Below are positions 24,313-54,684 of a stretch of 64,000 bases of DNA, piece by piece. The notes under the pieces were generated by a model that worked only from the letters and a program-made list of their open reading frames with translations, searched no databases and had not been told where the DNA came from. Each line of letters opens with the position of its first letter. Position 1 is the stretch's first letter. The stretch is from Chrysiogenia bacterium (GTDB lineage: Bacteria; JAGRBM01), in NCBI GenBank assembly GCA_020434085.1, contig JAGRBM010000286.1, forward strand, positions 1,246-65,245. Reading direction: 5' to 3'. The position numbers and the translations under genes are program-made.

Positions 24313-25590
24313 TCAGCCCTTCGCGGTTGCAATGGGGCCGCCCCAAACCGCCCGACGGTCCTGTTTTGCGAGCCATCGATTGATGATCGAGCCGACACCG
24401 CCGAAGATGTCATTGCCGAAGACGTCTCTCTCCCGCATCTCCATATCTTCGCTCAGTTCTCCAAGCCCCAGCAACGTGTAATCCCGGAAGCCTTCGTACT
24501 TTTCGGGCTCCAGCACGCGCACCCATCGGTTGAACAGGATGTTTGCGCCCATCAGAAACTCCGTACGTTCGAATGGGAGTTTGAACCCGGAGTTTTCTGC
24601 AAGGCGTGACACTTTCGAAAGAGTCTTTCCAAAGAAAGCAAATGTGTCGTATCCCAGCGTTTCGAACAGCGGTTTGAACTCAAGAATCAGCGGGGCGATT
24701 GGAACAAACATCATGGCGCGCGCCCACTTGTACCGTGCGCTGTGCGTAACATGGTGCGGAATATTGCCGAGCTTCGCGTAGGTCTGCGGGAACGCCGAAT
24801 GACGCGATTCGTCCATATGAAATCCTCGCATAATATGGCGCAGGCCTGGCTGGTTCTCGAGGAATCCGAAAATGCTCGTGGCGAATCCTTCCAGAACGAC
24901 ATTCATCCCGAACAGCTTGTGGTAATAATCCTTGCGAGCGATCGTCTCAAGCAGCGCCTTGCCGGCACCGCTCATCGGATAAATCCGGTCCAACGATTTG
25001 CACATTTCCCGCAGCGTGAAGAAGTGCTTGGCCTCTTCCATTACCTGCATTGCCATGCCGAGTTTTGCACCGGTGCCCTGGACCACCGGCATCAACGTCG
25101 CCGAGGTAAAGAGCGCGTATGCTTCGCCGTGGGTGATGAAGGATACAAGGCGCATCAGGGCTTCCCGCTGCTCTGGGCTGTGGGCCTCCTGAAACTCCCT
25201 TCGAACTTCCTCGGATGTGGCAATCCCAACCGACTCCTTGATTTCCTCGGTGAGGACCACGGGATCGAGACCGCTGGCCGCTGCAGTCACAGCGCCCCCT
25301 TTGCGGGCCACGTAGTCGGCCTTTGACGCATCGTGGATGTTCAGATACGGCGCAATCAGCTCCGCCTTCCAGATATGTGCAAGGGCCTTTTCATAGTTGC
25401 GCTGGGTAAGCAGTTCCATCTCCCCGCCATAGAAGGTCGCCGTGGTATCATCGTATCGATTGGCCATGTGCTTGGGATTGTCCGCCCATCGCCGGAACTG
25501 CGCATCCAAGAAGCGCTCATTCAGGACCTGGATACCCTGGATTCCGTATTTAAAAGCCGCGTCTGCTCGCTGTTGAGTCATGATTTCCAT
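24313..25590 (-). CDS. Ferritin-like diiron-carboxylate protein, paralog 1 (425 aa)
   Basis: Two E...ExxH sites (HGEAYALF...MEEAKHF; LEGFATSIF...MDESRHSAF); ATG at 25590 with a GAGGGA RBS. Confidence 0.7.
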   Translation of the reverse strand: MEIMTQQRADAAFKYGIQGIQVLNERFLDAQFRRWADNPKHMANRYDDTTATFYGGEMELLTQRNYEKALAHIWKAELIAPYLNIHDASKADYVARKGGAVTAAASGLDPVVLTEEIKESVGIATSEEVRREFQEAHSPEQREALMRLVSFITHGEAYALFTSATLMPVVQGTGAKLGMAMQVMEEAKHFFTLREMCKSLDRIYPMSGAGKALLETIARKDYYHKLFGMNVVLEGFATSIFGFLENQPGLRHIMRGFHMDESRHSAFPQTYAKLGNIPHHVTHSARYKWARAMMFVPIAPLILEFKPLFETLGYDTFAFFGKTLSKVSRLAENSGFKLPFERTEFLMGANILFNRWVRVLEPEKYEGFRDYTLLGLGELSEDMEMRERDVFGNDIFGGVGSIINRWLAKQDRRAVWGGPIATAKG

Positions 25591-25767
25591 AATTTCCCTC
25601 GTGCACAGATTTTTTTAGGTTTTATTGAAGTGGGGGGGCATCCGGATCTGCCCGCCGGAGCCCGACAGCCGTGTCGCACTCATGATCAAAACACTATTAC
25701 AAAACAGGCAATCAAGTCAAATAATTATTGCAACCCATTGATATTATTAACAAAAATAGTATAGTTA

Positions 25768-25796
25768 TTGCTATGCTTTAAAATGATGCTATAAAT
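25768..25796 (+). promoter_or_regulatory. Candidate sigma70-like promoter (TTGCTA-N16-TATAAAT) for diiron paralog 2
   Basis: Hexamers in an AT-rich divergent intergenic region, about 80 nt upstream of the ATG at 25879. Confidence 0.35.
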
Positions 25797-25803
25797 CGAC
25801 CAT

Positions 25804-25821
25804 AAGCTGAAGCGTCAGCTT
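25804..25821. promoter_or_regulatory. Inverted repeat AAGCTGA-N4-TCAGCTT (candidate operator)
   Basis: Perfect 7-bp arms read directly; lies between the putative -10 and the start codon of 25879..27018. Confidence 0.4.
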
Positions 25822-25878
25822 ACTTCGGTGCGCCGGTTGGGCGATGGCCAGCGGAAAACAAATGCGCGAAAGGGACAA

Positions 25879-27018: not shown

Positions 27019-27182
27019 ACGGAAGGCACTGGAATATCCTGACAGCCGTTTACGGGGAGCACTGGTGGCTCCCCGTAAACGGCCTGCATGCGCCGCTGCC
27101 GTGGGAGTGACGAGTCCCTTTCCCGAAAAGCTCTTGCGACTTCGGAGAGCTTTCTGTTCTGCACAGCAACCAGAGGCCAACC

Positions 27183-28334: not shown

Positions 28335-28564
28335 GACCGGAATCAGCAAGGTGAAAGCCCGCCGGTTTCGCGGAACGGATCGTGAGTAATAGCCCGGCGT
28401 GTTTCCCTGACATGCGCGATTCCAACATACTGGCGGCGCGTGGCCAGCAACCTGAGGTCGCATCCCCGAGAGTGTTGGGTAGTACCGCCGTTTTTCACCG
28501 AAACCGTTTACCGCCCGTCACATCCATTTTGGGGCGATTCGATACTTCCGCGCTGGCGGACATC

Positions 28565-30115
28565 CTATTCGAAGTGGTAATGGCTCAACGGAAAATGCCT
28601 GCTTCGCCAGAGCATTTCGTAGCTCGACGCCGGTCGAAGGAATGGAGCGTCCCCATGACGATCGAAGTAGTAGCTGTTGGCGCCGCCGCAATTGTTGTTA
28701 AAAAACACCGTGTTCTTCTGACGCTTCAGCGTCATCTCAAAGTGCTTGTCGTGAGCGTCCTGCTTGATCTCGACACGGGTAGCGTTCTTCCTGCGCGCTT
28801 CCCGAATACAGCGAAGCGCGTGGGTCGTCTGGGCTTCCACCATCGCAAACCAGGATGACCCCGAAAAGGAATATGGGCCCAGAATCAGAAAGTAGTTGGG
28901 AAATCCCGGGACGGAAGTCCCCTCGTATGCCTGGTAGCGATTCTCAGCCCAGAATCCGCCCAAATTCATGCCGCTGCGTCCGGTCACATCGTAGGAAGGC
29001 AAATTTCCCTTTTCGAACGTCCTGTATCCGGTTGCCGCAATCAGAACATCGATCGCTCGCTCCGTCCCGTCGGCCGTAACAATCCCATTCTTGGTGATCC
29101 TTTTGATCGGCGTGGTTATGAGCCCCACGTTTTCACGCCCAAACGTGCGGAAATAGTCGTTGGAGAAAGACGGCCGCTTGCACCCGAAGCCGTAATGTGG
29201 AATCAGCTTCGCCCACAAGTCCGGACGATTGGGAAGCTGCCGCTTGATATTCCGAATGCCGGCGACTTCGGCCCGTTTGACGATACCCGGCATCTGCCTG
29301 TTGTACACGACGCCAGTGACCATCACGAGCTCGGTTCCCAGGTCCGTGGCGATTCGAAGTCCCCGCTGAATCATCGGAACACGACGGAAAAGCAGTTTTA
29401 TCCAGTTCGGAATCTCCCTGTCGGGTTTAGGAAGTACCCAGATTGGAGTGCGCTGATAGACATCCAGATGCTGCACCTTCGGGGCAATTTCCGGCAATAA
29501 TTGGACCGCAGTAGCCCCCGTGCCGATCACCGCTACCCGTTTCCCCTCCAACTTGAAACTGTGGTCCCATTTCGCCGTATGAATCAGCTTGCCCTCGAAA
29601 GAGTCGATGCCTTCAATGTCGGGCAGCTTGGGGTGGATTAATCCCCCGGTGGCTGAGATAATGTAGCGTGCGGTAAGCTCTTCCCCATCGTTTACGCGAA
29701 CCCGCCACAAGTTACATGCTTCATCGAAAGTTGCCGACTCCACACTGGTGCTGAACCGCATCTTCTCACGAACGCCGTATTTGCGGGCACAATGCTGGGC
29801 ATAGGCTTGCAGCTCCCGGCCCGGTGCAAACACACGAGACCAGTTGGGGTTGGGTTCAAAGGAGTAGGAATACGTAAACGAGGTGATATCGACGGCGATC
29901 CCGGGATAAGAATTGTCCCGCCATGTACCTCCAAGATCACCAGCACGCTCGAGAATGATGTAAGGACCGATGCCTGCCTTGTTCAGCTTAATTCCGGCGC
30001 CGATGCCAGAAAAGCCCGAGCCGATTATGATCACTTCATAATCAGGCCGGGGTGACGGCGATATCGAGACGTCATTCCGGCCATTGGACCCTACCGATGC
30101 GGACGCAAATCCCAT
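28565..30115 (-). CDS. Type I Baeyer-Villiger monooxygenase (516 aa)
   Basis: VIIIGSGFSGIG Rossmann fold, GGTWRDNSYPG, BVMO fingerprint FEGKLIHTAKWD. Confidence 0.85.
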   Translation of the reverse strand: MGFASASVGSNGRNDVSISPSPRPDYEVIIIGSGFSGIGAGIKLNKAGIGPYIILERAGDLGGTWRDNSYPGIAVDITSFTYSYSFEPNPNWSRVFAPGRELQAYAQHCARKYGVREKMRFSTSVESATFDEACNLWRVRVNDGEELTARYIISATGGLIHPKLPDIEGIDSFEGKLIHTAKWDHSFKLEGKRVAVIGTGATAVQLLPEIAPKVQHLDVYQRTPIWVLPKPDREIPNWIKLLFRRVPMIQRGLRIATDLGTELVMVTGVVYNRQMPGIVKRAEVAGIRNIKRQLPNRPDLWAKLIPHYGFGCKRPSFSNDYFRTFGRENVGLITTPIKRITKNGIVTADGTERAIDVLIAATGYRTFEKGNLPSYDVTGRSGMNLGGFWAENRYQAYEGTSVPGFPNYFLILGPYSFSGSSWFAMVEAQTTHALRCIREARRKNATRVEIKQDAHDKHFEMTLKRQKNTVFFNNNCGGANSYYFDRHGDAPFLRPASSYEMLWRSRHFPLSHYHFE

Positions 30116-30163
30116 TTCATCACCTCCAACAGTATCTTCCTTCCCATCTGTTCCGGCGTAAAC

Positions 30164-30607
30164 CTACTTTTTCTTCGGATCCCGAATCAGCAAAGTACCT
30201 TGCGCCGCACAAACCAACCGCCCCTCATTGGAAACCTCGCCCCTTACCACTGCTGTCGTCTTTGTCATCGCGATGACTTCCGCGCTGCCATCGAGAGTCC
30301 CCGTCTTCACCGGCGCAAGATAATTCAATTTGAATTCAGTCGTCGCGGCCCACTGGCCGGGTGCCATCAGCGGATAGAGTACGACTCCAAGAATATGATC
30401 CATGTAACCAGCGAGTACGCCACCATGCATGTTTCCAATAGGCGTTAGCAGCTCCTTCCGCACTGGAAGCACGGCCTTGAGCGTACCGGGGCCGAGTTCC
30501 GTCACTTCGCATCCAAGAAATTTTGGCAGCCCGGTCATGGCGTTATTGGCCGCCATAATCCCCTTGGCTATTTGTGCGTTGAATTTCTCTGAAAAGTCTG
30601 CCTTCAC
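30164..30607 (-). CDS. PaaI-type hot-dog thioesterase
   Basis: 147 aa; NMHGGVLAGYMDHILG motif typical of PaaI/4HBT thioesterases. Confidence 0.8.
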   Translation of the reverse strand: MKADFSEKFNAQIAKGIMAANNAMTGLPKFLGCEVTELGPGTLKAVLPVRKELLTPIGNMHGGVLAGYMDHILGVVLYPLMAPGQWAATTEFKLNYLAPVKTGTLDGSAEVIAMTKTTAVVRGEVSNEGRLVCAAQGTLLIRDPKKK

Positions 30608-31500: not shown

Positions 31501-31540
31501 CTCATCAACTCCTTGGGGATTCCGGCGTCCAGTCGGGAAG

Positions 31541-32911: not shown

Positions 32912-32928
32912 GCGTGCCTACCTCCTCG

Positions 32929-34017: not shown

Positions 34018-34150
34018 GCTGAAACATCTCCATGTTGTCTTTCGTTACCGAAACAACGAGTTCGAGCTTTTTCATGCTTAAACATTAAGGGAGCCGTTGT
34101 TCGTTGCCGACCCCTCGCCCAGATCCATCCATAATTTCCACGGAATCCGG

Positions 34151-36100: not shown

Positions 36101-36126
36101 TGTAATATAGCATTTGCTATATTACA
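36101..36126. promoter_or_regulatory. Perfect 12-bp inverted repeat TGTAATATAGCA-tt-TGCTATATTACA (candidate operator)
   Basis: Read directly in the 270-bp divergent intergenic region between diiron paralog 4 and the ACAD operon. Confidence 0.5.
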
Positions 36127-36284: not shown

Positions 36285-37397
36285 ATGAACTTTGACTTTT
36301 CGCAAGACCAGAAGCTACTTCAGATGTCTGCTCAGGGCTTCCTCAGAGACCATGCGAGCTTGGCAGGGGTCAGGAAAATCCTGGATACAGATGCGGACTG
36401 GGATGCGACCCTCTGGACTCGGATGGCTGAACAGGGCTGGCAGGGCACCGCAATACCCGAAGAGTTCGGGGGGGCGGGTTTGGGTTATCTGGAACTGGCT
36501 CTCCTTTCCGAAGAGCTGGGAGCCTCTTTGGCACCTGTGCCGTTCTCGTCGTCAGTCTATTTCGTTACCGAAGCGGTCTTGCACTTCGGCACCGATGAGC
36601 AGAAGCGCAAGTACCTTCCAAAGCTTGCCACAGGCGAAACAATCGGCGCCTTGGCCTGGGCGGAAGGCCCAGGCATGCCAGGAGTGTCAGGACCGCTGAA
36701 AACATGCTTCGATGGAAACTCCCTCAGCGGCACCAAACTGCCGGTACTCGATGGCCAGGTTGCGAACCTGGCAGTCGTTGTGACATCGGAAAACGACGCC
36801 CTCAGCTTGGTCCTCGTAGATCTGAATTCCGATGGGGTCCAGCGCTCTCGGCTCGACTCCATGGATCCGACGCGATCTCAATCGAGCATTAGTTTTAATG
36901 GCGCCCCCGGCGAGCGCCTTGGTTCCTCCGGTGACGGGAGTCGAATACTTGATTGGCTCCTCGACCGGGCGGCTGTCCTCGTCGCATTTGAACAGCTTGG
37001 CGGGGCGAATCGAGCGCACAAAATGTCGCTCGAATATGCGAAGGAGCGATACGCGTTTGGCAGACAGATCGGCTCTTTCCAGGCCATCAAGCACAAAATC
37101 GTCGACATGTTGATGAGCGTGGATCTGGCGCGCTCCAACTGTCTCTACGCTGCATGGGCGCTACAGAACAATACTGATCTTCCCGTTGCTGCCGCGGCAG
37201 CGCGGGTTGCAGCAACCGAAGCATTCGAGTTCTGCTCCAAGGAAAACATTCAGGTTCACGGAGGTATCGGTTTTACCTGGGAGGCCGATGCTCACTTGTT
37301 TTTCAAAAGATCCAAGCTGCTGACGCTCTGGCTCGGAAATGCGGATCTCTGGCGTGACCGCCTGATGGCCAAACTCGACGACAAGCACGCGGCCTGA
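36285..37397 (+). CDS. Acyl-CoA dehydrogenase family protein (370 aa)
   Basis: ACAD N-terminal/middle/C-terminal domain architecture; IQVHGGIGFTWE C-terminal motif. Confidence 0.85.
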   Translation: MNFDFSQDQKLLQMSAQGFLRDHASLAGVRKILDTDADWDATLWTRMAEQGWQGTAIPEEFGGAGLGYLELALLSEELGASLAPVPFSSSVYFVTEAVLHFGTDEQKRKYLPKLATGETIGALAWAEGPGMPGVSGPLKTCFDGNSLSGTKLPVLDGQVANLAVVVTSENDALSLVLVDLNSDGVQRSRLDSMDPTRSQSSISFNGAPGERLGSSGDGSRILDWLLDRAAVLVAFEQLGGANRAHKMSLEYAKERYAFGRQIGSFQAIKHKIVDMLMSVDLARSNCLYAAWALQNNTDLPVAAAAARVAATEAFEFCSKENIQVHGGIGFTWEADAHLFFKRSKLLTLWLGNADLWRDRLMAKLDDKHAA

Positions 37398-37452
37398 CAC
37401 CTGGAACCCAATCGACTGAGCCGCCGCTTGCGGCGGGAAGGGAACTTCTACA

Positions 37453-38700
37453 ATGGATTTCAACGATACCAAGCAGGAAAGCGAATTTCGGAATGAAGCA
37501 CGAGCGTGGCTCAACGCCAATGCCAAGAAACGAGAAGACTCCGAAGACTTCTTCAGCATGTTTTCCGAGCGTGACGATTCCAATATGGTCGAAGCCGCCA
37601 AGGCATGGCAGGCCAAGAAAGTGGATGCGGGATGGGCGGGCATCACCTGGCCAAAGAGCTTTGGCGGCAGAGGCGGTTCGCCGATGCAGTCCGTCATCTG
37701 GGGTCAAGAAGAGTCAAAATTCAATGTCCCGCCCAATATCTTTGCGATCGGCATCGGCATGGCGGGCCCGACCATCATGGCCCATGGGACCAAGGAGCAA
37801 AAAGAGCAGCTTCTTCCGCCCATGCTTCGGGGCGACGAGATCTGGTGTCAGCTGTTCAGTGAGCCGGGTGCCGGCTCCGATCTCGCCGGGCTGAAGACTC
37901 GCGCCGTCAAAGACGGTGATGTCTGGGTCATCAACGGCCAAAAAGTCTGGACCTCGGGGGCGCACTACTCGGACTGGGGAATTCTCGTAGCACGGACCGA
38001 CTTCGACGCACCCAAGCACAAGGGCATTACGTACTTTGTCGTCAATATGAAAAGCCCGGGGATCGAGGTCAGGCCCATCAAGCAGATATCGGGTGGAGCG
38101 AACTTCAACGAGGTGTTCTTCACGGACGTTCGAATTCCCGACTCCAACCGCCTGGGCGGCGTGAACAAGGGTTGGCCGGTGGCTCTGACCACATTGATGA
38201 ACGAACGTTTCACAATTGGTGGCGGCGGCATGATGGGCGGCGGATTTGGGTTTGAAGACCTGGTCCAGCTAGCCAAGAAATTCGGTCAAAATGGCACCGC
38301 TGCGTACGGCGACATCGGTGTGCGCCGACGCCTTGCCGACATATACATTCGCTCCAAGGGACTTCAATACACCGGATATCGCGCCATCACGGCGCTCTCC
38401 AAGGGTGGGATACCCGGCCCCGAAGCCTCCGGCGGAAAGCTCATTTTTGGACAACTTTTGCAGGACATGGCGGCGCTGGCGCTCGAAATTCAGGGCCCCG
38501 TCGGCAGCCTGACCGAGGCATCGATCACGGCGCAGAATGCCGTGTGGCAAGAAGCCTTCATGTGGGCGCCCGGTATTCGCATTGCCGGCGGCACCGATGA
38601 AGTTCTTCGCAACATCATCGGCGAACGCGTACTCGGACTTCCAGGTGACGTTCGTGTTGATAAGGATGTGCCGTTCAGCAAAATCCCTTCGGGAAACTAG
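37453..38700 (+). CDS. Acyl-CoA dehydrogenase family protein (415 aa)
   Basis: ACAD architecture; GQKVWTSGA motif; adjacent to a second ACAD, a possible heteromeric pair. Confidence 0.85.
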   Translation: MDFNDTKQESEFRNEARAWLNANAKKREDSEDFFSMFSERDDSNMVEAAKAWQAKKVDAGWAGITWPKSFGGRGGSPMQSVIWGQEESKFNVPPNIFAIGIGMAGPTIMAHGTKEQKEQLLPPMLRGDEIWCQLFSEPGAGSDLAGLKTRAVKDGDVWVINGQKVWTSGAHYSDWGILVARTDFDAPKHKGITYFVVNMKSPGIEVRPIKQISGGANFNEVFFTDVRIPDSNRLGGVNKGWPVALTTLMNERFTIGGGGMMGGGFGFEDLVQLAKKFGQNGTAAYGDIGVRRRLADIYIRSKGLQYTGYRAITALSKGGIPGPEASGGKLIFGQLLQDMAALALEIQGPVGSLTEASITAQNAVWQEAFMWAPGIRIAGGTDEVLRNIIGERVLGLPGDVRVDKDVPFSKIPSGN

Positions 38701-38785
38701 CGCTGGAACTGCGCGCGTGTGCAGCCGCACAAAAGTTCCGGTCCGGTGATCGACCGCGAAGGGGAACAATCGAAGGGGAACAATA

Positions 38786-40348
38786 ATGAATGAGAAACTT
38801 CCGCTCGGATTCTGGCAGTGGGCACAGAAGGCGCCGGATCGGCATGGACTCGTCTCCCCTGATGGTAAGGAATATTCGGCGGGCGAGTTGCTTCAATTGA
38901 TCAACCAGCTATCGCATGGCCTGCGGTCCTTGGGGCTTCAAAAGGGCGACGGGATCGCAATGATGTTGGGAAACGGTACGGAATGGGTCGCATTGGCCCT
39001 CGCAGCATCACAGATCGGACTTTATTATACGCCGATTAATTATCACCTCACCGGGGAGGAAGCCGCTTACATCGTCGACGATTGCGAAGCGAAAGTCCTG
39101 ATAGTCGACGCCGCCTACTCCGATGCCGCACGTGTCATCGCGCAGCAGGCATCACTCCCTCAGGACCGGCGGTTTTCCGTGGGTTCTGTTGAGGGCTACC
39201 GGCCTTTTTCAGAAATTCACCAGGGCCAGCCAACGGACCTGCCTGAGAATCGCCTGGCAGGCCAGAATATGAACTACACGTCTGGAACGACTGGAAAACC
39301 CAAAGGTGTCCGACGACCGCTCATGCCCGCTACCCCTGAGCAAGCGGCACAGTTGGGAACACTGCTGGCCGGTCTCTTCAACATACCAGCTGGTTCCTAC
39401 GACGGGGTACATCTATGTGCCGGACCGCTCTACCACACCGCGCCCGGCGCCTTTAGCCTGATGGGTCTGCATCTTGGCCAGTCACTGGTGCTGATGCATC
39501 GATGGGATCCCGAGAAAACACTTGAACTGATCGATAAATTTCGCGTAACAACCACCCATCTGGTCCCGACCATGTTTCACAGAATGCTCGCACTGCCCGA
39601 TGAGGTCAAATCCAGATACAAGTTCGATTCCCTCAGGAGCGTCATTCATGCTGCTGCACCCTGTCCTCCGGATATCAAGCACCGAATGATCGAATGGTGG
39701 GGCCCGGTAATCTATGAATACTACGGCGCCACTGAAGGCGGCGGAACGTCGGTAAAACCCAAGGAATGGCTTCAGCATCCGGGTACCGTGGGGCGCGCAT
39801 GGCCGGGTTCCACGATCAAGGTTCTTGACGATGAAGGGAATGAGTGCCCACCGAACACTCAGGGAACGGTCTATATGGGGTCACCCATCGGATCCTTCGA
39901 GTACTACAAGGACCCGAAGAAGACGAACGAGAATCGCCGGAAAGACCTTTTCACTGTGGGAGATATTGGTTACCTGACCGAAGACGGCTTTCTCTTCCTG
40001 TGCGACAGAAAGTCAGACATGATCATCGCCGGCGGTGTGAACATCTACCCGGCAGAAATTGAAGCCGTCTTTCTTTCCCATCCCAAAGTCGCAGATGTGG
40101 CTGTTTTTGGAGTCCCCGACAACGATATGGGAGAGAGTGTCTACGCAGTGATCCAGCTCAGTGAAGGATCAGAGGATCTCGATGCCTTGAAGAATGAGCT
40201 CAATAAGTTTGCCGAGGCAAAGTTGGCCAAATTCAAGTTGCCGCGCGGGATGGAGTTCCGGAAAGAACTCCCTCGTGAGCCCAGTGGCAAACTTTTCAAA
40301 CGAAAACTTCGCGACGAGTTCTGGAAACATTCGGGTCGGCACATCTAG
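38786..40348 (+). CDS. Acyl-CoA synthetase (AMP-binding, fatty-acid-CoA ligase)
   Basis: YTSGTTGKPKGV AMP-binding motif; 520 aa. Confidence 0.9.
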   Translation: MNEKLPLGFWQWAQKAPDRHGLVSPDGKEYSAGELLQLINQLSHGLRSLGLQKGDGIAMMLGNGTEWVALALAASQIGLYYTPINYHLTGEEAAYIVDDCEAKVLIVDAAYSDAARVIAQQASLPQDRRFSVGSVEGYRPFSEIHQGQPTDLPENRLAGQNMNYTSGTTGKPKGVRRPLMPATPEQAAQLGTLLAGLFNIPAGSYDGVHLCAGPLYHTAPGAFSLMGLHLGQSLVLMHRWDPEKTLELIDKFRVTTTHLVPTMFHRMLALPDEVKSRYKFDSLRSVIHAAAPCPPDIKHRMIEWWGPVIYEYYGATEGGGTSVKPKEWLQHPGTVGRAWPGSTIKVLDDEGNECPPNTQGTVYMGSPIGSFEYYKDPKKTNENRRKDLFTVGDIGYLTEDGFLFLCDRKSDMIIAGGVNIYPAEIEAVFLSHPKVADVAVFGVPDNDMGESVYAVIQLSEGSEDLDALKNELNKFAEAKLAKFKLPRGMEFRKELPREPSGKLFKRKLRDEFWKHSGRHI

Positions 40349-40371
40349 GCGACTTACGTGGGGATTATTTC

Positions 40372-41568
40372 GTGGCAAAGCACAGAACATCAATCCGCGG
40401 GCAGGCAGCCATCGTCGGCGCGCATGATATCGTCTCACCTACCGGGAAGCTCGATGGAACCGAGAGACAGCTGGAAGTTCGGGCGATTCGCGCCGCGCTG
40501 GACGATGCGGGTCTGAAGCTGAGTGACGTGGATGGGTTGCTCTGCACCGGCATGATGATGCCTTCCATGGATCTCGCAGAACATCTCGGGATCCAACCTC
40601 GGTACACCGATACCACGATGACCGGAGGTTCGAGTTTTGAGGTAATGGTCGAGCACGCCGCTCTGGCCATCACCTGCGGGCTTTGCGAGGTTGCCATCAT
40701 CGTCTATGCAGCAACCCCGCGTGCCAAGGGCGGCGGGCGAAAGTACGCCGCGATGATGCAGGCAATGATGGAACCGGGAAACCCACCGCCCATGGCGGAG
40801 TGGGAATTGCCATACGGCCTGCTGAGTCCGTCCGGAGCGTACGCGCTTGCCGCAAGCAGGCACATGCATGTTTATGGCACGACTCCGGAACAACTTGCTC
40901 AGATCGCCGTTTCGACACGGCAATGGGCGAGCATGAACAAGAATGCAAGATATCAGGAGCCGATCACCATTGATGACGTCCTGGCATCCCCCTACGTAGC
41001 AGAACCTTTACATCGCCTTGATTGTTGCCTTGTTACAGACGGTGCCGGTGCAATTGTCATGACTTCGGCCGAGCGTGCGAAGGATTTGAGGAAACCGCCG
41101 GTGTACGTTCTCGGTGCGGCAACCCACCATGACCACGCCATGATGATCGCACAGATGCCCGATCTGACACGGACCGCCGGAGCTGTCTCCGGGCCGCGAG
41201 CGTTCGAGATGGCCGGGATCACCCCCAGGGACGTCGATGTTTTCGAGGGATATGATTCCTTTACGATTACCTTGCTTTTGCACCTCGAAGATCTGGGATT
41301 TTGCCCGAAGGGCGAAGGCGGTCGGTTTGTCGAAGGAAATCGACTCGGCCCCGGAGGGTCACTACCCACCAATACCAACGGCGGAGGACTCTCATACACC
41401 CATCCAGGAATGTATGGAATGTTCCTGCTTGTCGAGGCGACAAGACAGCTGCGTGGCGAATGCAACGACCGCCAGGTCTCTGATGCTGAAATTGCCGTAG
41501 CTCACGGATGTGGCGGCATCCTTTCATCAACGGGGACGATTGTTCTTGGAACGGAGGGCACGCTTTGA
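40372..41568 (+). CDS. SCP-x / nsLTP-type thiolase (thiolase-like protein)
   Basis: 398 aa; thiolase fold with a C-terminal HGCGG-like region; paired with the downstream DUF35 protein, as in SCP-x/Ltp systems. Confidence 0.75.
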   Translation: MAKHRTSIRGQAAIVGAHDIVSPTGKLDGTERQLEVRAIRAALDDAGLKLSDVDGLLCTGMMMPSMDLAEHLGIQPRYTDTTMTGGSSFEVMVEHAALAITCGLCEVAIIVYAATPRAKGGGRKYAAMMQAMMEPGNPPPMAEWELPYGLLSPSGAYALAASRHMHVYGTTPEQLAQIAVSTRQWASMNKNARYQEPITIDDVLASPYVAEPLHRLDCCLVTDGAGAIVMTSAERAKDLRKPPVYVLGAATHHDHAMMIAQMPDLTRTAGAVSGPRAFEMAGITPRDVDVFEGYDSFTITLLLHLEDLGFCPKGEGGRFVEGNRLGPGGSLPTNTNGGGLSYTHPGMYGMFLLVEATRQLRGECNDRQVSDAEIAVAHGCGGILSSTGTIVLGTEGTL

Positions 41569-41576
41569 GCGGACGA

Positions 41577-41978
41577 ATGTCAGTCGGGACGTCCGGGACG
41601 GGTACCCCCTTTTGGGATGCCACCCGGGAAAAGCGCCTTGTTTTGCAATGGTGCAAGGCTTGCGACCGCGCAATTTTCTACCCACGAGATTTCTGCCCGA
41701 ATTGCTTGGGGGAGGAACTGGTCTGGGAAGACGCGAAAGGCACCGGAGTTGTTTATGCCCTTAGCGTCATGCACAAGCCCGGCAATCCTCTAATGGCCCA
41801 GAGAGTTCCATATATCGTCGCGATCATCGAGCTTGCCGAGGGCGTACGTATGCTGTCGACAGTCGTGGGCGACGGACGGATCACTGCAAAGGTAGGCGAT
41901 AAGGTACGGGTTTCCTGGGAAGATCTCAATGATGGTCGCTATCTTCCGGTGTTCGAACTAATCGCTCGGACATCCTGA
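41577..41978 (+). CDS. DUF35 OB-fold / zinc-ribbon protein (thiolase partner)
   Basis: CKACDRAIFYPRDFCPNC zinc ribbon followed by an OB-fold; ATG at 41577, 9 nt after the thiolase stop. Confidence 0.7.
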   Translation: MSVGTSGTGTPFWDATREKRLVLQWCKACDRAIFYPRDFCPNCLGEELVWEDAKGTGVVYALSVMHKPGNPLMAQRVPYIVAIIELAEGVRMLSTVVGDGRITAKVGDKVRVSWEDLNDGRYLPVFELIARTS

Positions 41979-41992
41979 TCAGAGGATATCCC

Positions 41993-43411
41993 ATGCTTCA
42001 TAACCGTGTCATCCGCAGCGTTGTTTCCGTCCTGTTTTTCACCCGTATCCTGATGAGCTACGTCTGGTTCGGGATGGTTACTCAGAAGCGCATTCCCAGA
42101 GGCCAGGGCATGCGACGCAGGGCTTTGGAATCACTGCACGAGATCAATGCAAAGAGAATGTATGGCTATTTTGTTCGCCTGAAGGGCGTATATATCAAAA
42201 TCGGCCAATTCCTCTCCACCCAGGCCGCTTTCTTGCCTCCGGCCTATCTCATTGAAATGGTCAAGATGCAGGATCAAAACCCGATCGCTCATGAGTCGGC
42301 AATTCGCACGCGAATTGTGGAGGAGTTCGGTGCACAACCAGAAGAGATCTTCGCCCGATTTGACGCCGCACCTTTGGCTTGCGCCTCGATCGGGCAGGTT
42401 CACCGTGTTCGACTCAAGGATGGGCGCCAGGCGGTTCTAAAGGTGAAATATCCCGGCATCGACCGGTTCTTTTTTGCAGACCAGAAAGTCGTAAAGCTGA
42501 TGCTGCCCTGGTTTATTCGGATTCTTGAATACGGCCTTTATCAGGAGTCCACCGGCATCAATTACAACGCGCTGATCGACGAATTCGTCAAATACATCAG
42601 CAAAGAGTTGGATTATCGCAACGAAGTACTCAATCAGGAGAGGATGTACGAACAGTTGGAGGGAATGCGCAACAGGCGTATGGTGGCCATTCCACGGCTC
42701 TACAAGGAGTATTGCCGTGACTCCATCATCTGCATGGAGTTCATTGATGCCCTGAAAATAGTGCCGTGGTATACGAACCCCAAAGTCCCCAATCAGAAGA
42801 AAGACTGGATTTTTCGGTGCATGGTCGAGTGCCTGTTCTATACCATTGCGTACCACGGCTTCTTTCAGGCTGACACGCATCCTGGCAATTTTATGGTGCT
42901 GGATGACGATCCGGAGAATCCCGATGTCCCAGCGACACTGGTGATGCTGGATTTCGGGTGCACCAAGGATTTCCCGGAAGGATTCCGCCTCGGGGTTGTC
43001 GAAGTCGTCAATGGATATCTGACGAAGATGCCCGAGAAGATCACTGCCGCGCTGTGGAAACAGGGATTTCGCACCAAGTTACAGACACTCGAATCCCTCG
43101 AATTGTGGGTAACCCAAGGCGTCGGAGTTACAGACGAGATTCTCGGATTCTTTCGGGACGGCACCGATATCGTCGAACACTTGCGCCACAACCTCGCCGA
43201 AATGGCTTCTGAATTTCTTGAACTTCACGACGCTCACCGGATCGCTGCAGTCCCGGAGCATTACGCATTGCTCGCACGCGTGATCGCTACGGCACCGGTT
43301 CCGCTTGAGGAATACATGCCGCGGGTGGATTTCCTGCCGATTGCGCTCACATATGTCAGCGTACTTGCAAGCAAGGCACGCGAGGACTCGCCTCGAGCGG
43401 CCGCATCATAG
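41993..43411 (+). CDS. ABC1/UbiB (Coq8-like) atypical protein kinase
   Basis: IKIGQFLST, ASIGQVHRVRL (Lys region), HADTHPGNFMV catalytic motif. Confidence 0.8.
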   Translation: MLHNRVIRSVVSVLFFTRILMSYVWFGMVTQKRIPRGQGMRRRALESLHEINAKRMYGYFVRLKGVYIKIGQFLSTQAAFLPPAYLIEMVKMQDQNPIAHESAIRTRIVEEFGAQPEEIFARFDAAPLACASIGQVHRVRLKDGRQAVLKVKYPGIDRFFFADQKVVKLMLPWFIRILEYGLYQESTGINYNALIDEFVKYISKELDYRNEVLNQERMYEQLEGMRNRRMVAIPRLYKEYCRDSIICMEFIDALKIVPWYTNPKVPNQKKDWIFRCMVECLFYTIAYHGFFQADTHPGNFMVLDDDPENPDVPATLVMLDFGCTKDFPEGFRLGVVEVVNGYLTKMPEKITAALWKQGFRTKLQTLESLELWVTQGVGVTDEILGFFRDGTDIVEHLRHNLAEMASEFLELHDAHRIAAVPEHYALLARVIATAPVPLEEYMPRVDFLPIALTYVSVLASKAREDSPRAAAS

Positions 43412-43486
43412 CTCATGATACTCCGGCTGGGACCGCCGGGAGTTTGACCATGAATACCAAGCGAACATGCAGGGAGATATAGGCCG

Positions 43487-44602
43487 ATGAGTACAAAGAA
43501 GACCTCGAAAAAGAGTAATAACACCGAGAAAAGACGAGCTTCTACCAAAACGGGCAAACCCGTCGGTTCGCAGCGGGTTCGTGGCAAAACGCTGGTGACC
43601 GGCGCCGCCGGTTTTATCGGCTCTCATGTCGTACGTGAGTTGCTCAAAGAGGGCAGAGAAGTCCGCGCCTTGGTAATGCCCGGAGAGAATCGAAAAAACC
43701 TGGAAGCACTGGATGTCGAAATCGTAGAGGGAAATCTTCTAGAGCCCTCCACTCTCAAACCGGCTGTAACGGGCTGCTCGCGCATTCACCATTTGGCCGC
43801 CATTTATGCGATCTGGCTCCCGCGACGAGAGAAGATGTTCGAAGTCAACTGCATCGGCTCGTTGAACCTTCTCTGGGAAGCCTATCATCAGTCGGTCGAA
43901 AAACTCGTCTTTACATCGTCGATCGCGGCAGTAGGCATCAAGCCCGGCAAGACGCCCGCAAAGGAGGACGACCGATTTAACCAGGTGGCTGCGGCAAACG
44001 ATTACGTCAACTCCAAATGGCTTTCTGAAGAGGAGGCGAAGACCTTTGTTCGCCAGGGAATGGACATTTCGTTCTGCAACCCCGGATTTCCCTTTGGCGC
44101 AAGAGACGTCGCGCCGACCCCGACCGGCCAGATATTGCTCGATATCGTGAATGGGAAGAATCGATTCTACTTTGACGCGGGATTTTCCGCAGTGGACGTT
44201 GAAGATGTGGCACGGGGTCACGTACTGGCTGAAAAACACGGAAAGCCTGGTGAACGCTACATCCTTTCAAATCACAATCTGACGTTCAAGGAATTTTACG
44301 ATTTGATTTCCGACGTGAGTGGTGTTCGGCACAAGGCGAGGAAACTCCCGATCCAGTTCGCCGCTCCCCTTGGTGATTGGCTTGAGCGCCGGGCCGATCA
44401 AACAGGCAAACGGCCTGTGCTGACGGGAAGCGGTATTCGCTATGCGAACAACTACCTGTACTTCGATAACTCGAAAGCGCGCAACGAACTGGGCCTGACA
44501 TTCACGCCGATTGAGGACAGCATCAGACGCGCAATTTCATGGTTTGCGGAGAACCGCTACATCACGAACCAGGAGTTTCTTCGGCGCTACCGGAATTGCT
44601 GA
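43487..44602 (+). CDS. NAD-dependent epimerase/dehydratase family (extended SDR)
   Basis: TLVTGAAGFIGSHVV Rossmann motif; 371 aa. Confidence 0.8.
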   Translation: MSTKKTSKKSNNTEKRRASTKTGKPVGSQRVRGKTLVTGAAGFIGSHVVRELLKEGREVRALVMPGENRKNLEALDVEIVEGNLLEPSTLKPAVTGCSRIHHLAAIYAIWLPRREKMFEVNCIGSLNLLWEAYHQSVEKLVFTSSIAAVGIKPGKTPAKEDDRFNQVAAANDYVNSKWLSEEEAKTFVRQGMDISFCNPGFPFGARDVAPTPTGQILLDIVNGKNRFYFDAGFSAVDVEDVARGHVLAEKHGKPGERYILSNHNLTFKEFYDLISDVSGVRHKARKLPIQFAAPLGDWLERRADQTGKRPVLTGSGIRYANNYLYFDNSKARNELGLTFTPIEDSIRRAISWFAENRYITNQEFLRRYRNC

Positions 44603-47466: not shown

Positions 47467-47477
47467 ACACGCTTAGT

Positions 47478-48536: not shown

Positions 48537-48547
48537 GTTGTATCGCC

Positions 48548-49045: not shown

Positions 49046-49049
49046 GAAT

Positions 49050-50531: not shown

Positions 50532-50605
50532 GGCCTCAAAAATACCACGAGTTCAAATAGTTATGATGCGCGCCCGGTCCCTTGCCCCGTGCAGTATAAT
50601 CCAGC

Positions 50606-50638
50606 CCTTGACGGCGAATCAAGGATAGTGTTTACTAT
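50606..50638 (+). promoter_or_regulatory. MerR-type promoter: TTGACG -35 and TACTAT -10 with a 19-bp spacer, overlapped by the inverted repeat CCTTGA-N7-TCAAGG
   Basis: Read directly; lies between the divergent merR-like gene and diiron paralog 5. Confidence 0.5.
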
Positions 50639-50714
50639 ATTTGTAGTCGGATGGGCGTTTTCCGGGGTCTTTCCCGGAGTGCCTCAATGGATACGGAGCA
50701 AAGGAGCGACTCTT

Positions 50715-51647: not shown

Positions 51648-51708
51648 CCCTTCCTCAACGGATCCGGTCGCCGATGCCCATACATTGCGGATCAAGTGAG
51701 GGTAGAAG

Positions 51709-53781
51709 ATGTCCCAGGATATCAGCACAAAAGCGCGGAGCCACAAGCACCCGCTGAAAATTGCGCCGCCTAAGAAGATCCCTGTCCATGTCGGCGAAGA
51801 CGCCGATGAGACCGTTACCTTGGAAGGCCTGGCCCCCCACGTTGAACTCCCCGAGGGACTGGCGTTCGATAAGTCGAAGTTTGATTCGGTTGGGACGGGA
51901 GCCGGCCATCCCCCCCTGAAGGTGCCTCCGCCGCCAAGGCCCAAGGCCGCCAAGCGTCCGCCCCTGTCTCCCCCGGCTGCCTCACCATCCGCTTCGGACA
52001 CAGCACATGACGGAGAAGAAGAGGTCATCATTGAGCAGCGTCGTCCGAAGGAAAAGAAGGTTGTAGGCGGTCGCCTGCAGAATCCAGACGCACTGGCCCG
52101 GCTGGAACCACCCGATTTCTCCGCAATTCCGCCGGATCCTGAGGTACACGTCCCCTCCAGACTCCGGGCAGATCCGCAGCGGCTCGTGGAAATTGCGCGT
52201 GTGCTATTCCGCCACGGCCTCGGGTTTCCCCTGGAATGCGTCCGGGGCAGGAACTCGCGCAAGGCCCTTGCCCGGCGGTTGCGCCTGGCTTTTGAAGAGC
52301 TGGGTCCGACCTTTATCAAGCTGGGGCAGATGGTGGCGTCGAGTCCCGGAATTTTCCCAAGGGAAGTATCCGATGAATTCCTCAAATGCCTCGATAAGGT
52401 CCCCGCGTTTCGGTTTTCGGAAGTAAAACGCATTCTTGGGGACGAGCTCGGACCCGGTTGGGAGGCCCGATTTCAGAAGATCGAGGCCGTTCCGGTTGCT
52501 GCCGCAAGCATCGCCCAGGTCCACTTCGCCGAATTGGCCGACGGCACGCCTGTCGTCATCAAAGTGCAGCGACCGGGCATTCAAAAGGTCATTGAGCGGG
52601 ATCTCGGAATTCTGTTTTTGCTGGCGAAAGGGCTTGTGCGTGCCTTCGAAAATGCCCATCTGGCCAATCCGGTGGGAATCGTCTCGGATTTCAATCAGAC
52701 GCTGCATGAGGAACTCGACTTCCGACTGGAAGCCAACAGCATGGAGCGGTTCAATGCGGTGTTTTCCTCTGCTGGAGACAAGCGCATCTATGCGGCCCAA
52801 GTGTACCGCGAACTTACCACGAAACGCATCTTGGTGATGGAGCGGCTACATGGCGCCCGGGTGGACGACCTCGATTCGATTCGAAATCTTGGTGTGGACC
52901 CTGAAGACGCTCTCCGCCTCGGAATCAAGGCAGTTCTTCGTACGATGATGTTGCATGGATTTTTCCATGGCGATGTGCATGCGGGCAATCTCCTCATCAC
53001 CGCAGATGCCGGCGTCCATTTCATGGATTTCGGAATCGTCGGCAGGCTCGACGACGAGCGAAGTAAACGCGTCACTCACCTTCTGGTTTCGCTCATGGCG
53101 GGCACTTTCGAGAACCTGGCCGACGTGCTCATGAAGCTGGGTACTACAAATGCAAAGACCGACCGGATTCAGCTGAAGGATGATCTGAAGAACCTGCTGG
53201 GACAGTTCAAGGACACGGCGCTTGGTGCGCTCAACTTCGGAGACCTGCTGACCGCCGTCGTCAAAGCAGCCGTACGGAACCATGTGCGCCTTCCGCGAGA
53301 GTTCGTTCTACTGGTGAAACAGATAGTTTACTTCGACCGCTACGCCCACGTTCTTGCTCCCGATCTGAATATATTCGACGACCGTTTCTTGATCGATTTC
53401 CTGTGGCGTGACCCGCTGGGTCGAAAACGATTTCCGCAGATGCAGATGATCGGCATGCTTGGAAATGTCCGCTCCATCAAGGATCTTCGCAATAATCGCC
53501 GGCGCTCTTTCGACGAGCTTCCGGAGCGGTACAGGGGGAAATACCGATACTGGGATGGCTCTCCCCTTCAGCCCAATGAGCTCCAGTGCGTTGTCTGCAA
53601 CATCATCGTGATTGCCAAACGCCCGTTTCAGGTCGGAGACAGGGTGTTCTGTCAACCCTGCGGCACCAAAATGGTGGTGATCGAGAAGGAAGGAAAACTC
53701 ACGGCCGAACCGATTTATTCCCAAGAAGCGCAGGCATCCTTCCGGATAACAGAGGGTTTGCAGGAATTCGCGCCGATCTGA
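51709..53781 (+). CDS. ABC1/UbiB (Coq8-like) kinase with a Pro-rich N-terminal extension and a C-terminal Cys-rich (zinc-ribbon-like) tail
   Basis: [35 protein letters not shown]1 motifs; C-terminal CVVCN...CQPCG. Confidence 0.8.
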
Positions 53782-53808
53782 GAATTCCATTACTGGGGGA
53801 TTACGGAA

Positions 53809-54684
53809 ATGCTTGATCTGGAATCGCTGCTGGAGAAGTCCCACGCGGGTCAGTGGTCGGTCGCTGATTTCGATTGGGAAACGCCGTTTCCACCGGGGCT
53901 GCCGATCAGTGAGCGCAAGCGCCAGCTGCTGGGAAGAGTCCTGCTTTTCACTGCAGGGGTTGAACGTTTGGGCGCCTACGCATTTCAGATTAACGCCCGG
54001 AACTCGATGCACCCGACCGTCCGGGAGCTCTTCGAGGTCATCGCAAAAGATGAGTTCCGGCACGCGGAGGCTGAGACTCTTCTGGCGAGACGGCTGGGGG
54101 TCGAATGGAAAGATCTGCCGTGGCTCATGCGCCGGGCCTTCAAGGTGCTCTCGCACGACCTGCGGAAACTGAAGGGAGTACGAGGTCGCCTCTTCCACGA
54201 AATCGTGGGGACCCAGATCGTCCTGTTCGAACTTGGACTCGATTCGCTTTGGAGTCCGACGGTCCGGGAGATGATTGACGATCCGTTCCAGAACGAGATT
54301 ATCCGCATGATCGACCGCGATGAATCACGGCATCTGGCCATGGACTACTGGTTGCTCGAACAGAAGGGCACGGGTACTGACCGCACTTCGCTCAATGCGC
54401 GGCGAATTCTAGCCAACCTTCCCTTGCGCCTTTCGTCGGCAGCACTGGGAGCGGGCGCATTCCTGACGTTTTTCTGGAGTGTCCGGAACCTCGAAATCTC
54501 ACCCGAACGATTTGATGACTACTGGACTCGCGTACAGGCAATCGTCGACAAATCGCCGCACGCGCGCAGATTTCCGCCGCATCGCACGACGGTGGGTCTG
54601 ATAGACGCACTTGTGAACTTTTTCGACGGAAATAAGGCAGCATTCAAGGGATTTATGCTTCTGGTGACAGGACGAAATATTTAG
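53809..54684 (+). CDS. Ferritin-like diiron-carboxylate protein, paralog 6 (291 aa; group A)
   Basis: GQWSVADFDW; AKDEFRHAEAE; DRDESRHLAMDYWLL. Confidence 0.7.
   Translation: MLDLESLLEKSHAGQWSVADFDWETPFPPGLPISERKRQLLGRVLLFTAGVERLGAYAFQINARNSMHPTVRELFEVIAKDEFRHAEAETLLARRLGVEWKDLPWLMRRAFKVLSHDLRKLKGVRGRLFHEIVGTQIVLFELGLDSLWSPTVREMIDDPFQNEIIRMIDRDESRHLAMDYWLLEQKGTGTDRTSLNARRILANLPLRLSSAALGAGAFLTFFWSVRNLEISPERFDDYWTRVQAIVDKSPHARRFPPHRTTVGLIDALVNFFDGNKAAFKGFMLLVTGRNI

Follow-up and report, generated by a model that had tools for sequence, protein, structure and literature searches.

Six Ferritin-Like Genes and Their Metal Ligands

A stretch of 64,000 nucleotides from contig JAGRBM010000286.1 of an uncultured Chrysiogenia bacterium (positions 1,246 to 65,245 of assembly GCA_020434085.1; here called the window) encodes six ferritin-like dimetal proteins, denoted P1 to P6. 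An earlier note on this DNA had described them as paralogous diiron proteins and suggested a family of O2-activating enzymes for lipidic substrates. All six open reading frames (ORFs) are present at the coordinates it gave, as found from the ORF listing and translation, and the starts of P2 (25879), P4 (36015), and P5 (50715) match the gene calls of near-identical contigs and the alignments of homologues. P3, P4, and P6 make up “group A”. The genes are as follows.

P1, 24313..25590, minus strand: 425-residue ferritin-like dimetal protein with a conserved N-terminal extension; heads the operon P1, PF10118, Baeyer-Villiger monooxygenase (BVMO), BVMO.
P2, 25879..27018, plus strand: 379-residue ferritin-like dimetal protein at the periphery of AurF; divergent from P1, with an acyl-CoA dehydrogenase (ACAD) gene directly after it in the operon.
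P3, 30604..31500, minus strand: 298-residue group-A ferritin-like dimetal protein; gene order aldehyde dehydrogenase (ALDH), P3, 4HBT thioesterase, BVMO.
P4, 35014..36015, minus strand: 333-residue group-A ferritin-like dimetal protein; heads the operon P4, SDR, MBL, ALDH, P3, 4HBT, BVMO; divergent from an ACAD/acyl-CoA synthetase (ACS)/thiolase operon.
P5, 50715..51647, plus strand: 310-residue alpha-type member of a ferritin-like alpha-beta-Cys4 cassette family; heads the operon P5, ABC1, P6, Coq4, P450; divergent from a MerR-TPR regulator.
P6, 53809..54684, plus strand: 291-residue group-A ferritin-like dimetal protein, with an ABC1 kinase on one side and Coq4 on the other.

Two metal-ligand sets had been reported for each ORF, and all six proteins indeed carry a complete E / ExxH / E / ExxH pattern that is conserved within the respective family. 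Conservation was assessed in alignments of each protein with 25–39 homologues at 25–88% identity (26–40 sequences per alignment), namely A1 for group A (32 sequences), A2 for P1 (26), A3 for P2 (40), and A4 for P5 (26). The six group-A positions, P3 and P4 included, are invariant across the 32 sequences of A1 (E52, E82, H85, E141, E172, and H175 in P6). Those of P1 (E156, E186, H189, E234, E261, and H264) and of P5 (E77, E107, H110, E168, E200, and H203) are likewise invariant in their 26 homologues. In the P2 family, E158, H161, E208, E238, and H241 are invariant, and the first Glu, E128, is the sole ligand position short of invariance in any family, being kept in at least 90% of the 40 sequences. 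The first ligand motif of P1 is EEAKH, which differs from the reading given earlier. Conservation of six ligands to this extent is far beyond chance, since random ExxH pairs would not persist so.

With a four-helix core, Glu residues on helices 1 and 3, and ExxH motifs on helices 2 and 4, the six belong to the ferritin-like dimetal-carboxylate superfamily and its R2-like catalytic class. The structure model of P6 is confident and has an R2-like fold. With all six proteins as queries, tblastn finds no seventh homologous copy in the whole window.

Ferritin-like proteins can also serve as non-catalytic lipid-binding, scaffold, or regulatory subunits that keep the fold, like PaaC or the sMMO beta subunit, and the six do occur in pairs within operons (P4 with P3, P5 with P6, and alpha with beta in the wider P5 family), which recalls heteromeric hydroxylases with one structural subunit. 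In known systems, however, a structural subunit no longer has its metal ligands, while here the ligands are kept in all four families and also in the beta paralogue of the P5-type cassette described below. A non-catalytic role is barely credible.

The P1 and P2 families have in common an HGE motif, in which a conserved His lies just before the first ligand Glu (H154-G-E156 and H126-G-E128). P1 has a further conserved residue, His258, three residues ahead of ligand E261. These histidines are possible extra or second-sphere ligands that would set P1 and P2 apart from R2lox and the aldehyde-deformylating oxygenases (ADO).

Four Families Rather than One

Pairwise relations were determined by all-against-all BLASTP and links between families by profile-profile comparison (hhalign). 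P3, P4, and P6 share 37–40% identity (E 1e-56 to 1e-76), with P3 at 37% to both P4 and P6, and P4 at 40% to P6. P1, P2, and P5 are linked at 26–29% identity (E 2e-7 to 1e-11). No significant BLAST similarity is found between these two sets. At the profile level, the P1 and P2 families are joined with a probability of 99.7%, as are the P2 and P5 families. Group A joins the P2 family (A1 versus A3) at 97.5% and E 7e-12, with the N-terminal QW..DxDW motif within the alignment, and its comparison with the P5 family is not significant. The P2 family is thus the bridge between both sets. With a profile link alone and no BLAST link between the sets, the proteins are four families (P1; P2; P5; and P3/P4/P6), not six close paralogues or one paralogous family as had been thought. 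The grouping of P3, P4, and P6, and of P2 with P5 (E 1e-10), was correctly recognized from the start, although P3 reads WSVHQFDW and lacks the DFDW proposed for the whole group. P1, regarded as a divergent outlier, in fact matches P2 (E 1e-11) and P5 (E 2e-7).

P1, P3, P4, P5, and P6 each have their own orthologue (60–90% identity) and their own neighbours in related metagenome-assembled genomes (MAGs), and are therefore old paralogues of four families and not the products of recent local amplification. In a search of 5.8 billion sequences, group A comprises 69 proteins at E < 1e-5. The P1 family has 82 members, all MAG-derived, the P5 family at least 450, and the P2 family 1320 representative clusters at E < 1e-3. 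The close relatives of the six come from MAGs exclusively, and a protein identical to P6 is recorded as ‘ferritin-like domain-containing protein [Chrysiogenetes bacterium]’. Other genomes also hold several group-A copies, at least eight in the related MAG CAZMGV01 (L009–L011, L013, L014, L018, and L030; loci outside the window carry L numbers) and three in Bdellovibrionota MAG007 (L016, L022, and L024), so that multiplicity is a trait of the lineage. The genome of this window probably contains further group-A copies beyond the window.

Relation to Known Oxygenase Families

The nearest relatives of the six are the AurF-like, R2lox, ADO, and VlmB families. Pfam and NCBIfam return weak matches scattered over the ferritin clan, which include AurF, Phenol_Hydrox, Ald_deCOase, Ribonuc_red_sm, MiaE, Rubrerythrin, and R2lox. 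None of the six reaches a curated cut-off, and the databases name them only ‘ferritin-like domain-containing’ or ‘hypothetical’, so their description as unrecognized holds. Membership in the acyl-ACP desaturase, AurF N-oxygenase, or Coq7 families, each of which had been suggested, failed in the Pfam profile check. P4 alone matches the desaturase model (PF03405, cut-off 22.7), with 14.7 bits over 28 residues, and none of the six has a COQ7 match (Coq7/CLK-1, PF03232) at E ≤ 1.

For AurF/CmlI (PF11583, gathering threshold 29.6 bits), P2, P4, and P5 score 20.3, 22.6, and 14.3 bits, and the others give no match. The P2 family does overlap PF11583, which is matched by 39 of 40 relatives of P2 (best E 9e-17), and group A is tied to the P2 family by its profile and N-terminal motif. 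In the AurF/CmlI site, the Glu of the second ExxH is preceded at −4 by a third His ligand. The residue at this position is Val in P2 and P5 and Ile in group A (Ile168, at least 90% conserved), while the conserved His of P1 lies at −3 (H258), out of the AurF register. The present proteins also differ from AurF/CmlI in the sub-threshold scores of P2 and P4 and in having no aromatic-amine pathway around them.

In the R2 subunit of ribonucleotide reductase (RNR), the radical Tyr is found four residues after the first ExxH histidine (E. coli Y122). This position is Phe in P2 and P5, Leu in P1, and Glu in P6, and PF00268 is matched by P5 alone (18.9 versus 33.6 bits). The bacterial multicomponent monooxygenase model (PF02332) gives 15–19 versus 24.4 bits, and the window has no reductase, Rieske ferredoxin, or MmoB-type genes. 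Storage ferritin and Dps are ruled out by size, R2-like fold, and operon context.

R2lox proteins (GkR2loxI 4hr0, SaR2loxII 7qbk, and M. tuberculosis Rv0233) resemble the six in their R2-type ferritin fold of ~300 residues with E/ExxH/E/ExxH ligands, in the Phe that replaces the radical Tyr after the first ExxH (P2 and P5), and in their occurrence in lipid- or alkane-oxidation gene clusters without a dedicated reductase gene. NCBIfam R2lox scores (PRK08326 models) are nevertheless far under the cut-offs of 194–315, at 12–30 bits with P5 best at 29.8. The N-terminal W..DxDW motif of group A and P2 and the long N-terminal extension of P1 are not R2lox features. R2lox is further marked by an ether cross-link between Val and Tyr, with the register E69/V72 and Y162/E167 (PMC10867098). 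By sequence register, this pair (Val at +3 after the first Glu and Tyr at −5 before the third) is absent in all six, the +3 position being Ala in P1, P2, and P5 and Gly in P6, and the −5 position Met in P1 and P2, Asn in P5, and Gln in P6.

The solved structure matched by P5 is that of the VlmB homologue 6d9f/8wvr (E 3.8e-17), in an alignment of ~275 residues that brings all four ligand motifs into register. The P2-family profile finds R2lox (E 7e-12) and ADO (E 3e-9), and the P1-family profile finds R2lox 7qbk (E 5.5e-5). P4 has weak matches to AurF (22.6 bits), rubrerythrin, and MiaE 8fhb, and the Rubrerythrin Pfam matches of P4 and P6 are weak, local, and under threshold. VlmB, or ‘protein 60’ (8wvr, 6d9f), the valanimycin diiron oxygenase, is therefore the closest solved relative of P5. 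Aliphatic substrates are a feature of VlmB, which oxidizes aliphatic hydrazines (PMC11705231). Similarity to P5 is nonetheless low, no VlmO-type hydrazine synthase or azoxy-pathway gene is found near P5, and P5-type genes are coupled to a Cys4 protein and here also to a UbiB kinase. In all likelihood, to judge by these comparisons, the six share an O2-activating mode with the AurF, ADO, and R2lox families yet are members of none. The six extend a well-known superfamily by new, uncharacterized branches, whose gene context is unusually informative, and on present evidence are no new kind of system.

The same relatives raise the alternative that the six are ADO-like or AurF/VlmB-like biosynthetic enzymes that make hydrocarbons or N-oxidized natural products and have no part in lipid breakdown. 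P5 comes near the ADO Pfam cut-off (PF11266, 26.3 versus 28 bits, 1.7 bits short), several of its close relatives have a precomputed PF11266 match, and 6d9f was deposited as aldehyde-deformylating. The overlap of the P2 family with PF11583 has been mentioned, and a NAD_binding_4/thioester-reductase-like protein and an acyltransferase are encoded in the window. On the TIGR04059 equivalog, though, P5 falls ~200 bits short (25.4 versus 222.65 bits), and the other five match neither ADO model. ADOs have ~230 residues and lack the N- and C-terminal extensions of the six, which are 60–200 residues longer, and no acyl-ACP reductase partner accompanies the latter. The third His of AurF/CmlI is absent in all six, the window contains no hydrazine-synthase, NRPS/PKS, or amine-supplying genes, and the aldehyde dehydrogenase, BVMOs, and full beta-oxidation set point to breakdown. 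A biosynthetic role is thus very unlikely.

The Island and Its Operons

The six genes are found in an island of ~43 kb (~19 to 62.5 kb) with ~55% G+C, compared with ~62% in the flanks. Syntenic contigs of the related MAG CAZMGV01 (L010, L011, L014, and L018) show the same contrast, with 53–57% G+C against 60–62% for its 142-kb contig, L013 and L030 being the loci used for contrast. In a 98%-identical strain, an rve integrase adjoins BVMO_a, past the last monooxygenase (L006 15894–17213). Neither a tRNA nor a flanking repeat is found at the island boundaries. The G+C contrast in two genomes and the rve integrase suggest a transferable genomic island. Its content includes three BVMOs, dehydrogenases, acyl-CoA enzymes, two UbiB kinases, Coq4, a P450, and an RND transporter, arranged as follows.

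Minus strand: P1, PF10118 ‘Metal_hydrol’, BVMO_b (FMO-like), BVMO_a.
19989..23327, minus strand: flavin monooxygenase pair of BVMO_a (type I) and FMO-like BVMO_b (Pfam FMO-like, Pyr_redox_3); ends the P1 operon.
Plus strand: P2, acyl-CoA dehydrogenase.
Minus strand: P4, SDR, MBL hydrolase, aldehyde dehydrogenase, P3, 4HBT thioesterase, BVMO_c.
28565..30607, minus strand: BVMO_c and the 4HBT thioesterase (30164–30607), downstream of P3.
36285..44602, plus strand: ACAD_2, ACAD_3, acyl-CoA ligase, SCPx-type thiolase, DUF35/ChsH2 OB protein, ABC1_a, HpnA/3beta-HSD-like reductase; divergent from P4.
Minus strand: MerR-TPR regulator, DUF2505, MBL, histidine kinase.
Plus strand: P5, UbiB kinase, P6, Coq4, P450.
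Minus strand: TetR, RND (MMPL/sterol-sensing), DUF1329, DUF1302.

Each copy had been placed in an operon with a flavin monooxygenase or with beta-oxidation genes. This is true of P1–P4, while P5 and P6 are accompanied by a UbiB/ABC1 kinase, Coq4, and the P450. The recurrent modules (the P1, P3, P4, and P5 units) are found in related MAGs at 60–90% identity. The order P1, PF10118, BVMO_b is kept in L010 and L014; ALDH, P3, (4HBT), BVMO recurs in L006, L012, L014, and L024; the synteny of ACAD_2 and ACAD_3 with P4 is kept in L012 and L014, and that of the ACAD operon in L014, L018, and L024. The MerR gene divergent from P5, ABC1, and Coq4/P6 also recurs in related MAGs. One distant group-A gene shares its operon, which is under TetR control, with genes for a luciferase-like monooxygenase and a 3beta-HSD-like reductase.

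The PtlE BVMO model matches BVMO_a with 795 bits. Several other neighbours carry information on the substrate. The ACAD pair resembles the heteromeric pimC/pimD/IpdE2 types, the HpnA/3beta-HSD-like reductase scores 323 bits with HpnA (cut-off 368) and 190 with the sterol demethylase SdmB, and the RND transporter (59125–61470) has sterol-sensing and HpnN-like similarity. Beta-oxidation enzymes of these types, heteromeric ACADs and SCPx thiolases with DUF35, are associated with acyl chains that are branched or bulky. Judged by their homologies, the ACAD pair, the SCPx thiolase with its DUF35/ChsH2 OB protein, the HpnA-like reductase, and the RND transporter point to bulky, branched, or polycyclic lipid substrates.

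A Cys4 Module Genetically Linked to P5

No ferredoxin or reductase partner had been seen near the six genes. This is correct for canonical ORFs, as neither the flanks nor any of the gaps between the island genes hold a ferredoxin, rubredoxin, or reductase ORF. The window does, however, encode a Cys4 domain of a kind tied to P5-type proteins.

53509..53718, plus strand: Cys4 domain (CxxC-17 aa-CxxC, ~70 residues) at the C-terminus of the ABC1/UbiB kinase ABC1_b (gene 51709–53781).

The ABC1_b gene lies between P5 and P6. Elsewhere the module is free-standing. In contigs of Terricaulis, Acidimicrobiales, and others, the gene after the P5 homologue encodes a further P5-like protein whose ligands are intact, and the next one a CxxC-17-CxxC protein of 85–97 residues. 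P5 shares 43% identity with the alpha gene of the Terricaulis cassette. Cys4 modules of this kind are found in L033 (7656–7946), L034 (7657–7950), L035 (7640–7930), L037 (5931–6188), and L040–L119. By tblastn, the free-standing proteins of L033–L035 match the window at 53509–53718 with E 1e-16 to 1e-20. A metagenome scan found 280 Cys4 relatives, of which 80 loci were mapped, and all four Cys of the module are invariant. In ~76 of the 80 mapped loci, which are all those with upstream sequence, a P5-type gene is directly upstream of the Cys4 gene. The order is alpha-beta-Cys4 in most and alpha-Cys4 in six, and only two of the 80, both of the lineage of the window, have the ABC1 fusion with P6 and Coq4. 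The module has no Pfam or PDB relative, its zinc-finger, rubredoxin, and rubrerythrin matches being all insignificant. The pattern of gene neighbourhoods makes the Cys4 domain a candidate partner module of P5.

Rubrerythrin consists of a diiron four-helix bundle and a rubredoxin-like Cys4 domain. The P5 cassette (alpha/beta and small protein) similarly couples a diiron bundle to a CxxC...CxxC module. It differs from rubrerythrin in that its modules are separate polypeptides or a Cys4-kinase fusion, its bundle is large and R2-like, and its Cys spacing is 17 residues. By analogy, the Cys4 domain could be either a rubredoxin-like electron relay or a structural adaptor.

UbiB Kinases and Coq4

The P6 gene is followed directly by a gene of another family.

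54694..55431, plus strand: Coq4-family protein, immediately downstream of P6 (Pfam Coq4 1.7e-29).

The protein has a complete HDxxH-x11-E metal motif (HDLYH-x11-E; HDLYHVLTGYGTDLLGE). In related MAGs, the Coq4 gene always adjoins a P6-type gene, with the order swapped in L004 and L005, and the P5-ABC1-P6-Coq4 operon is kept in another MAG at 60–66% identity. The association of P5 and P6 with a UbiB kinase and an intact-motif Coq4 suggests, by analogy, that they may act on a membrane isoprenoid lipid.

A dimetal protein, a UbiB-family kinase, and an intact-motif Coq4 in one operon resemble the eukaryotic coenzyme Q (CoQ) metabolon of COQ7, COQ8/UbiB, and COQ4 (PMC7615680). The P5-ABC1-P6-Coq4(-P450) operon could accordingly encode a quinone- or isoprenoid-lipid head-group modification complex and not a catabolic one. 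This is consistent with the UbiB-family kinase, which has 325 bits to TIGR01982, with the intact HDxxH-x11-E motif, with the tight spacing of an operon that holds two dimetal proteins, and with its conservation in a second MAG. A second UbiB kinase and the HpnA/SdmB-like reductase are close by, and a functional link of COQ4, COQ7, and COQ8 is documented (PMC7615680). The window, in contrast to the metabolon, has no COQ7 match among the six at E ≤ 1 and no UbiA/E/G/D/X-type prenyltransferase, methyltransferase, or decarboxylase genes or other ubiquinone genes; the kinases are under the UbiB equivalog cut-off; and the operon lies among catabolic-type genes, with a P450 within it and a divergent MerR-TPR regulator. 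A head-group modification complex is unlikely.

The PF10118 Protein

The gene directly downstream of P1 may encode a further metal protein.

23361..24296, minus strand: PF10118 ‘Metal_hydrol’ protein, directly downstream of P1 (Pfam 271.7 bits).

Residues E83, E113xxH116xxxH120, E165-H166, H196, and E199/E200xE202H203 are invariant in 6 homologues. These motifs align in register with the group-A dimetal ligands, but the profile comparison is not significant (hhalign probability 1.7–6.8%). A profile search of the PDB gives no match, and the single-sequence AF2 model has a pLDDT of 34. PF10118 genes recur beside P1-, P6-like, and P4-like genes in other genomes. From its motifs, the protein may be a cryptic seventh dimetal helical protein. 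A literature search on PF10118 / COG3687 found nothing informative.

Proposed Function

The presence of the genes, their fold, the conservation of the ligands, the relations among the families, the synteny, and the kinase-Cys4 fusion are observations; catalysis, the metal, the substrates, the electron source, and the part played by Cys4 are inferred. The six would be R2-like dimetal proteins of four uncharacterized families that reductively activate O2 for the two-electron oxidation of a hydrophobic substrate, a reading to which we give a probability of about 0.55. R2lox, aldehyde-deformylating oxygenase, AurF, and VlmB act by reductive O2 activation followed by substrate oxidation. The six would likewise be soluble or peripheral R2-like ferritin-fold proteins with a four-carboxylate/two-histidine dinuclear site (Fe/Fe or Mn/Fe). 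Members of four anciently separated families would have been assembled with flavin monooxygenases and acyl-CoA enzymes into the compositionally distinct island of ~43 kb. O2 would be reductively activated at the dimetal site, and a hydrophobic substrate in a predicted channel above the metals would then undergo a two-electron oxidation (hydroxylation, desaturation, or C-C scission).

For P1–P4, gene context would link the proteins to alkyl or isoprenoid oxidation. A subterminal route may proceed from hydroxylation to SDR dehydrogenation, Baeyer-Villiger insertion, and ester cleavage by hydrolase or thioesterase. It would continue with aldehyde oxidation by ALDH, activation by acyl-CoA ligase, and branched-chain-type beta-oxidation, all from the same operons. 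P5 would derive from a widespread, self-contained alpha-beta-Cys4 cassette, with Cys4 here fused to the neighbouring UbiB-type kinase and P6 and Coq4 next to it. The result may be a membrane-lipid-directed assembly in which Cys4 serves the dimetal protein, be it by relaying electrons like a rubredoxin (compare rubrerythrin) or as a structural adaptor.

R2lox offers a precedent. It co-purifies with long-chain hydroxy fatty acids (PMC9314684), and GkR2loxI is encoded in an ADH/ALDH/acyl-CoA ligase/ACAD/thiolase cluster and was reported as an alkane hydroxylase with no dedicated partner gene (PMC10867098). VlmB, with its aliphatic substrates, is a further precedent (PMC11705231).

Several findings weigh against this interpretation. 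The GkR2loxI case itself is weak, having been made with crude lysates and with a modest effect of ligand mutations (PMC10867098). All matches to named families fall under curated thresholds, and P6 is the one protein of the six whose structure was modelled. P1 homologues of distant genomes follow a TetR/HTH regulator without a BVMO, and the P1 context is confined to the lineage. The Cys spacing of the Cys4 module is zinc-ribbon-like and its zinc-finger matches are insignificant, so an electron-transfer role for it is speculative. The alpha-beta-Cys4 cassette has no recurrent neighbours, lipid genes included, in 31 long loci. P5 homologues (48% identity) are found directly downstream of a qNOR-type NorB in L036 (4537–7868) and L037 (2526–6188), of which one is from a Bdellovibrionota MAG and the latter has the Cys4 gene following. 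This hints that the wider P5 family may be concerned with NO or redox stress rather than lipids, and its neighbourhoods would suit a redox or stress function no less than a catabolic one. The interpretation given in the earlier note is partly supported. O2-activating dimetal oxidases are the most likely identity of the six, and a lipid substrate is suggested by gene context for P1–P4 in this lineage; the wider family of P5 is not lipid-linked.

A redox-stress role is a serious rival for the P5 cassette. Some or all of the six, P5 above all, might be rubrerythrin-like peroxidases, NO/ROS scavengers, or lipid-peroxide detoxifiers, with Cys4 as the point of electron entry. Such a role would suit an autonomous cassette that has no recurrent metabolic neighbours, parallels the architecture of rubrerythrin, and stands behind NorB in two loci. 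Some sources name the homologues ‘rubrerythrin’, P4 and P6 have weak Rubrerythrin Pfam matches, and an island rich in O2-consuming flavoenzymes would produce peroxide. Yet the fold is of the large R2/ADO type with ~290–425 residues, against a rubrerythrin core of ~140, those Pfam matches are local and under threshold, the closest solved relative by sequence is the oxygenase VlmB, and P1–P4 are within catabolic operons of conserved order. Redox defence by some or all of the six is improbable.

The oxidase reading may also be joined with the resemblance to the CoQ metabolon. The R2-like families, with the PF10118 protein as a seventh, would make the first C-H oxidations for Baeyer-Villiger breakdown of long-chain or isoprenoid lipids. 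A UbiB-type kinase with a rubredoxin-like Cys4 domain and Coq4 would extract a membrane lipid and deliver lipid and electrons to P5 and P6. The combination of partner-poor lipid-oxidizing machinery with a bacterial CoQ-metabolon-like complex is improbable as a whole. If it is true, homologues of UbiB/COQ8 and COQ4 would acquire a defined biochemical function beyond the synthesis of quinones.

Ferritin-fold dimetal oxidases carry out difficult C-H and N oxidations, and several branches, chiefly R2lox, have no agreed substrate. The locus provides four uncharacterized branches in conserved contexts with BVMOs, heteromeric acyl-CoA dehydrogenases, and a UbiB kinase/Coq4 pair, and is of interest to specialists in dimetal oxygenases and in UbiB/Coq4. 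The Cys4 protein comes after one of these branches in hundreds of metagenome contigs, and its fusion to the kinase here offers a testable hypothesis for the electron supply or assembly of such enzymes. The fusion is also one of few hints at what UbiB and Coq4 homologues do in bacteria. If the proteins are lipid hydroxylases, they could supply the initial reaction that is missing from the subterminal oxidation of alkanes or isoprenoids in uncultured lineages of marine and sediment habitats.

Additional Features of the Window

Between P4 and the ACAD_2 operon, which are transcribed divergently, the promoter region contains a perfect 12+12 palindrome at 36101–36126, TGTAATATAGCA-TT-TGCTATATTACA. 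It is unique in the window, with 0 expected by chance, and a regulator of the TetR or MerR type is a candidate to bind it as an operator.

Lipid-related genes are also found in the high-GC flank, at the following positions.

5338–6294, minus strand: patatin-like phospholipase.
13194–13820, plus strand: second DUF2505 protein.
12700–13224, minus strand: DUF4442 thioesterase-like protein.
11495–12541, minus strand: alpha/beta hydrolase.

Lipid metabolism is therefore not restricted to the island.

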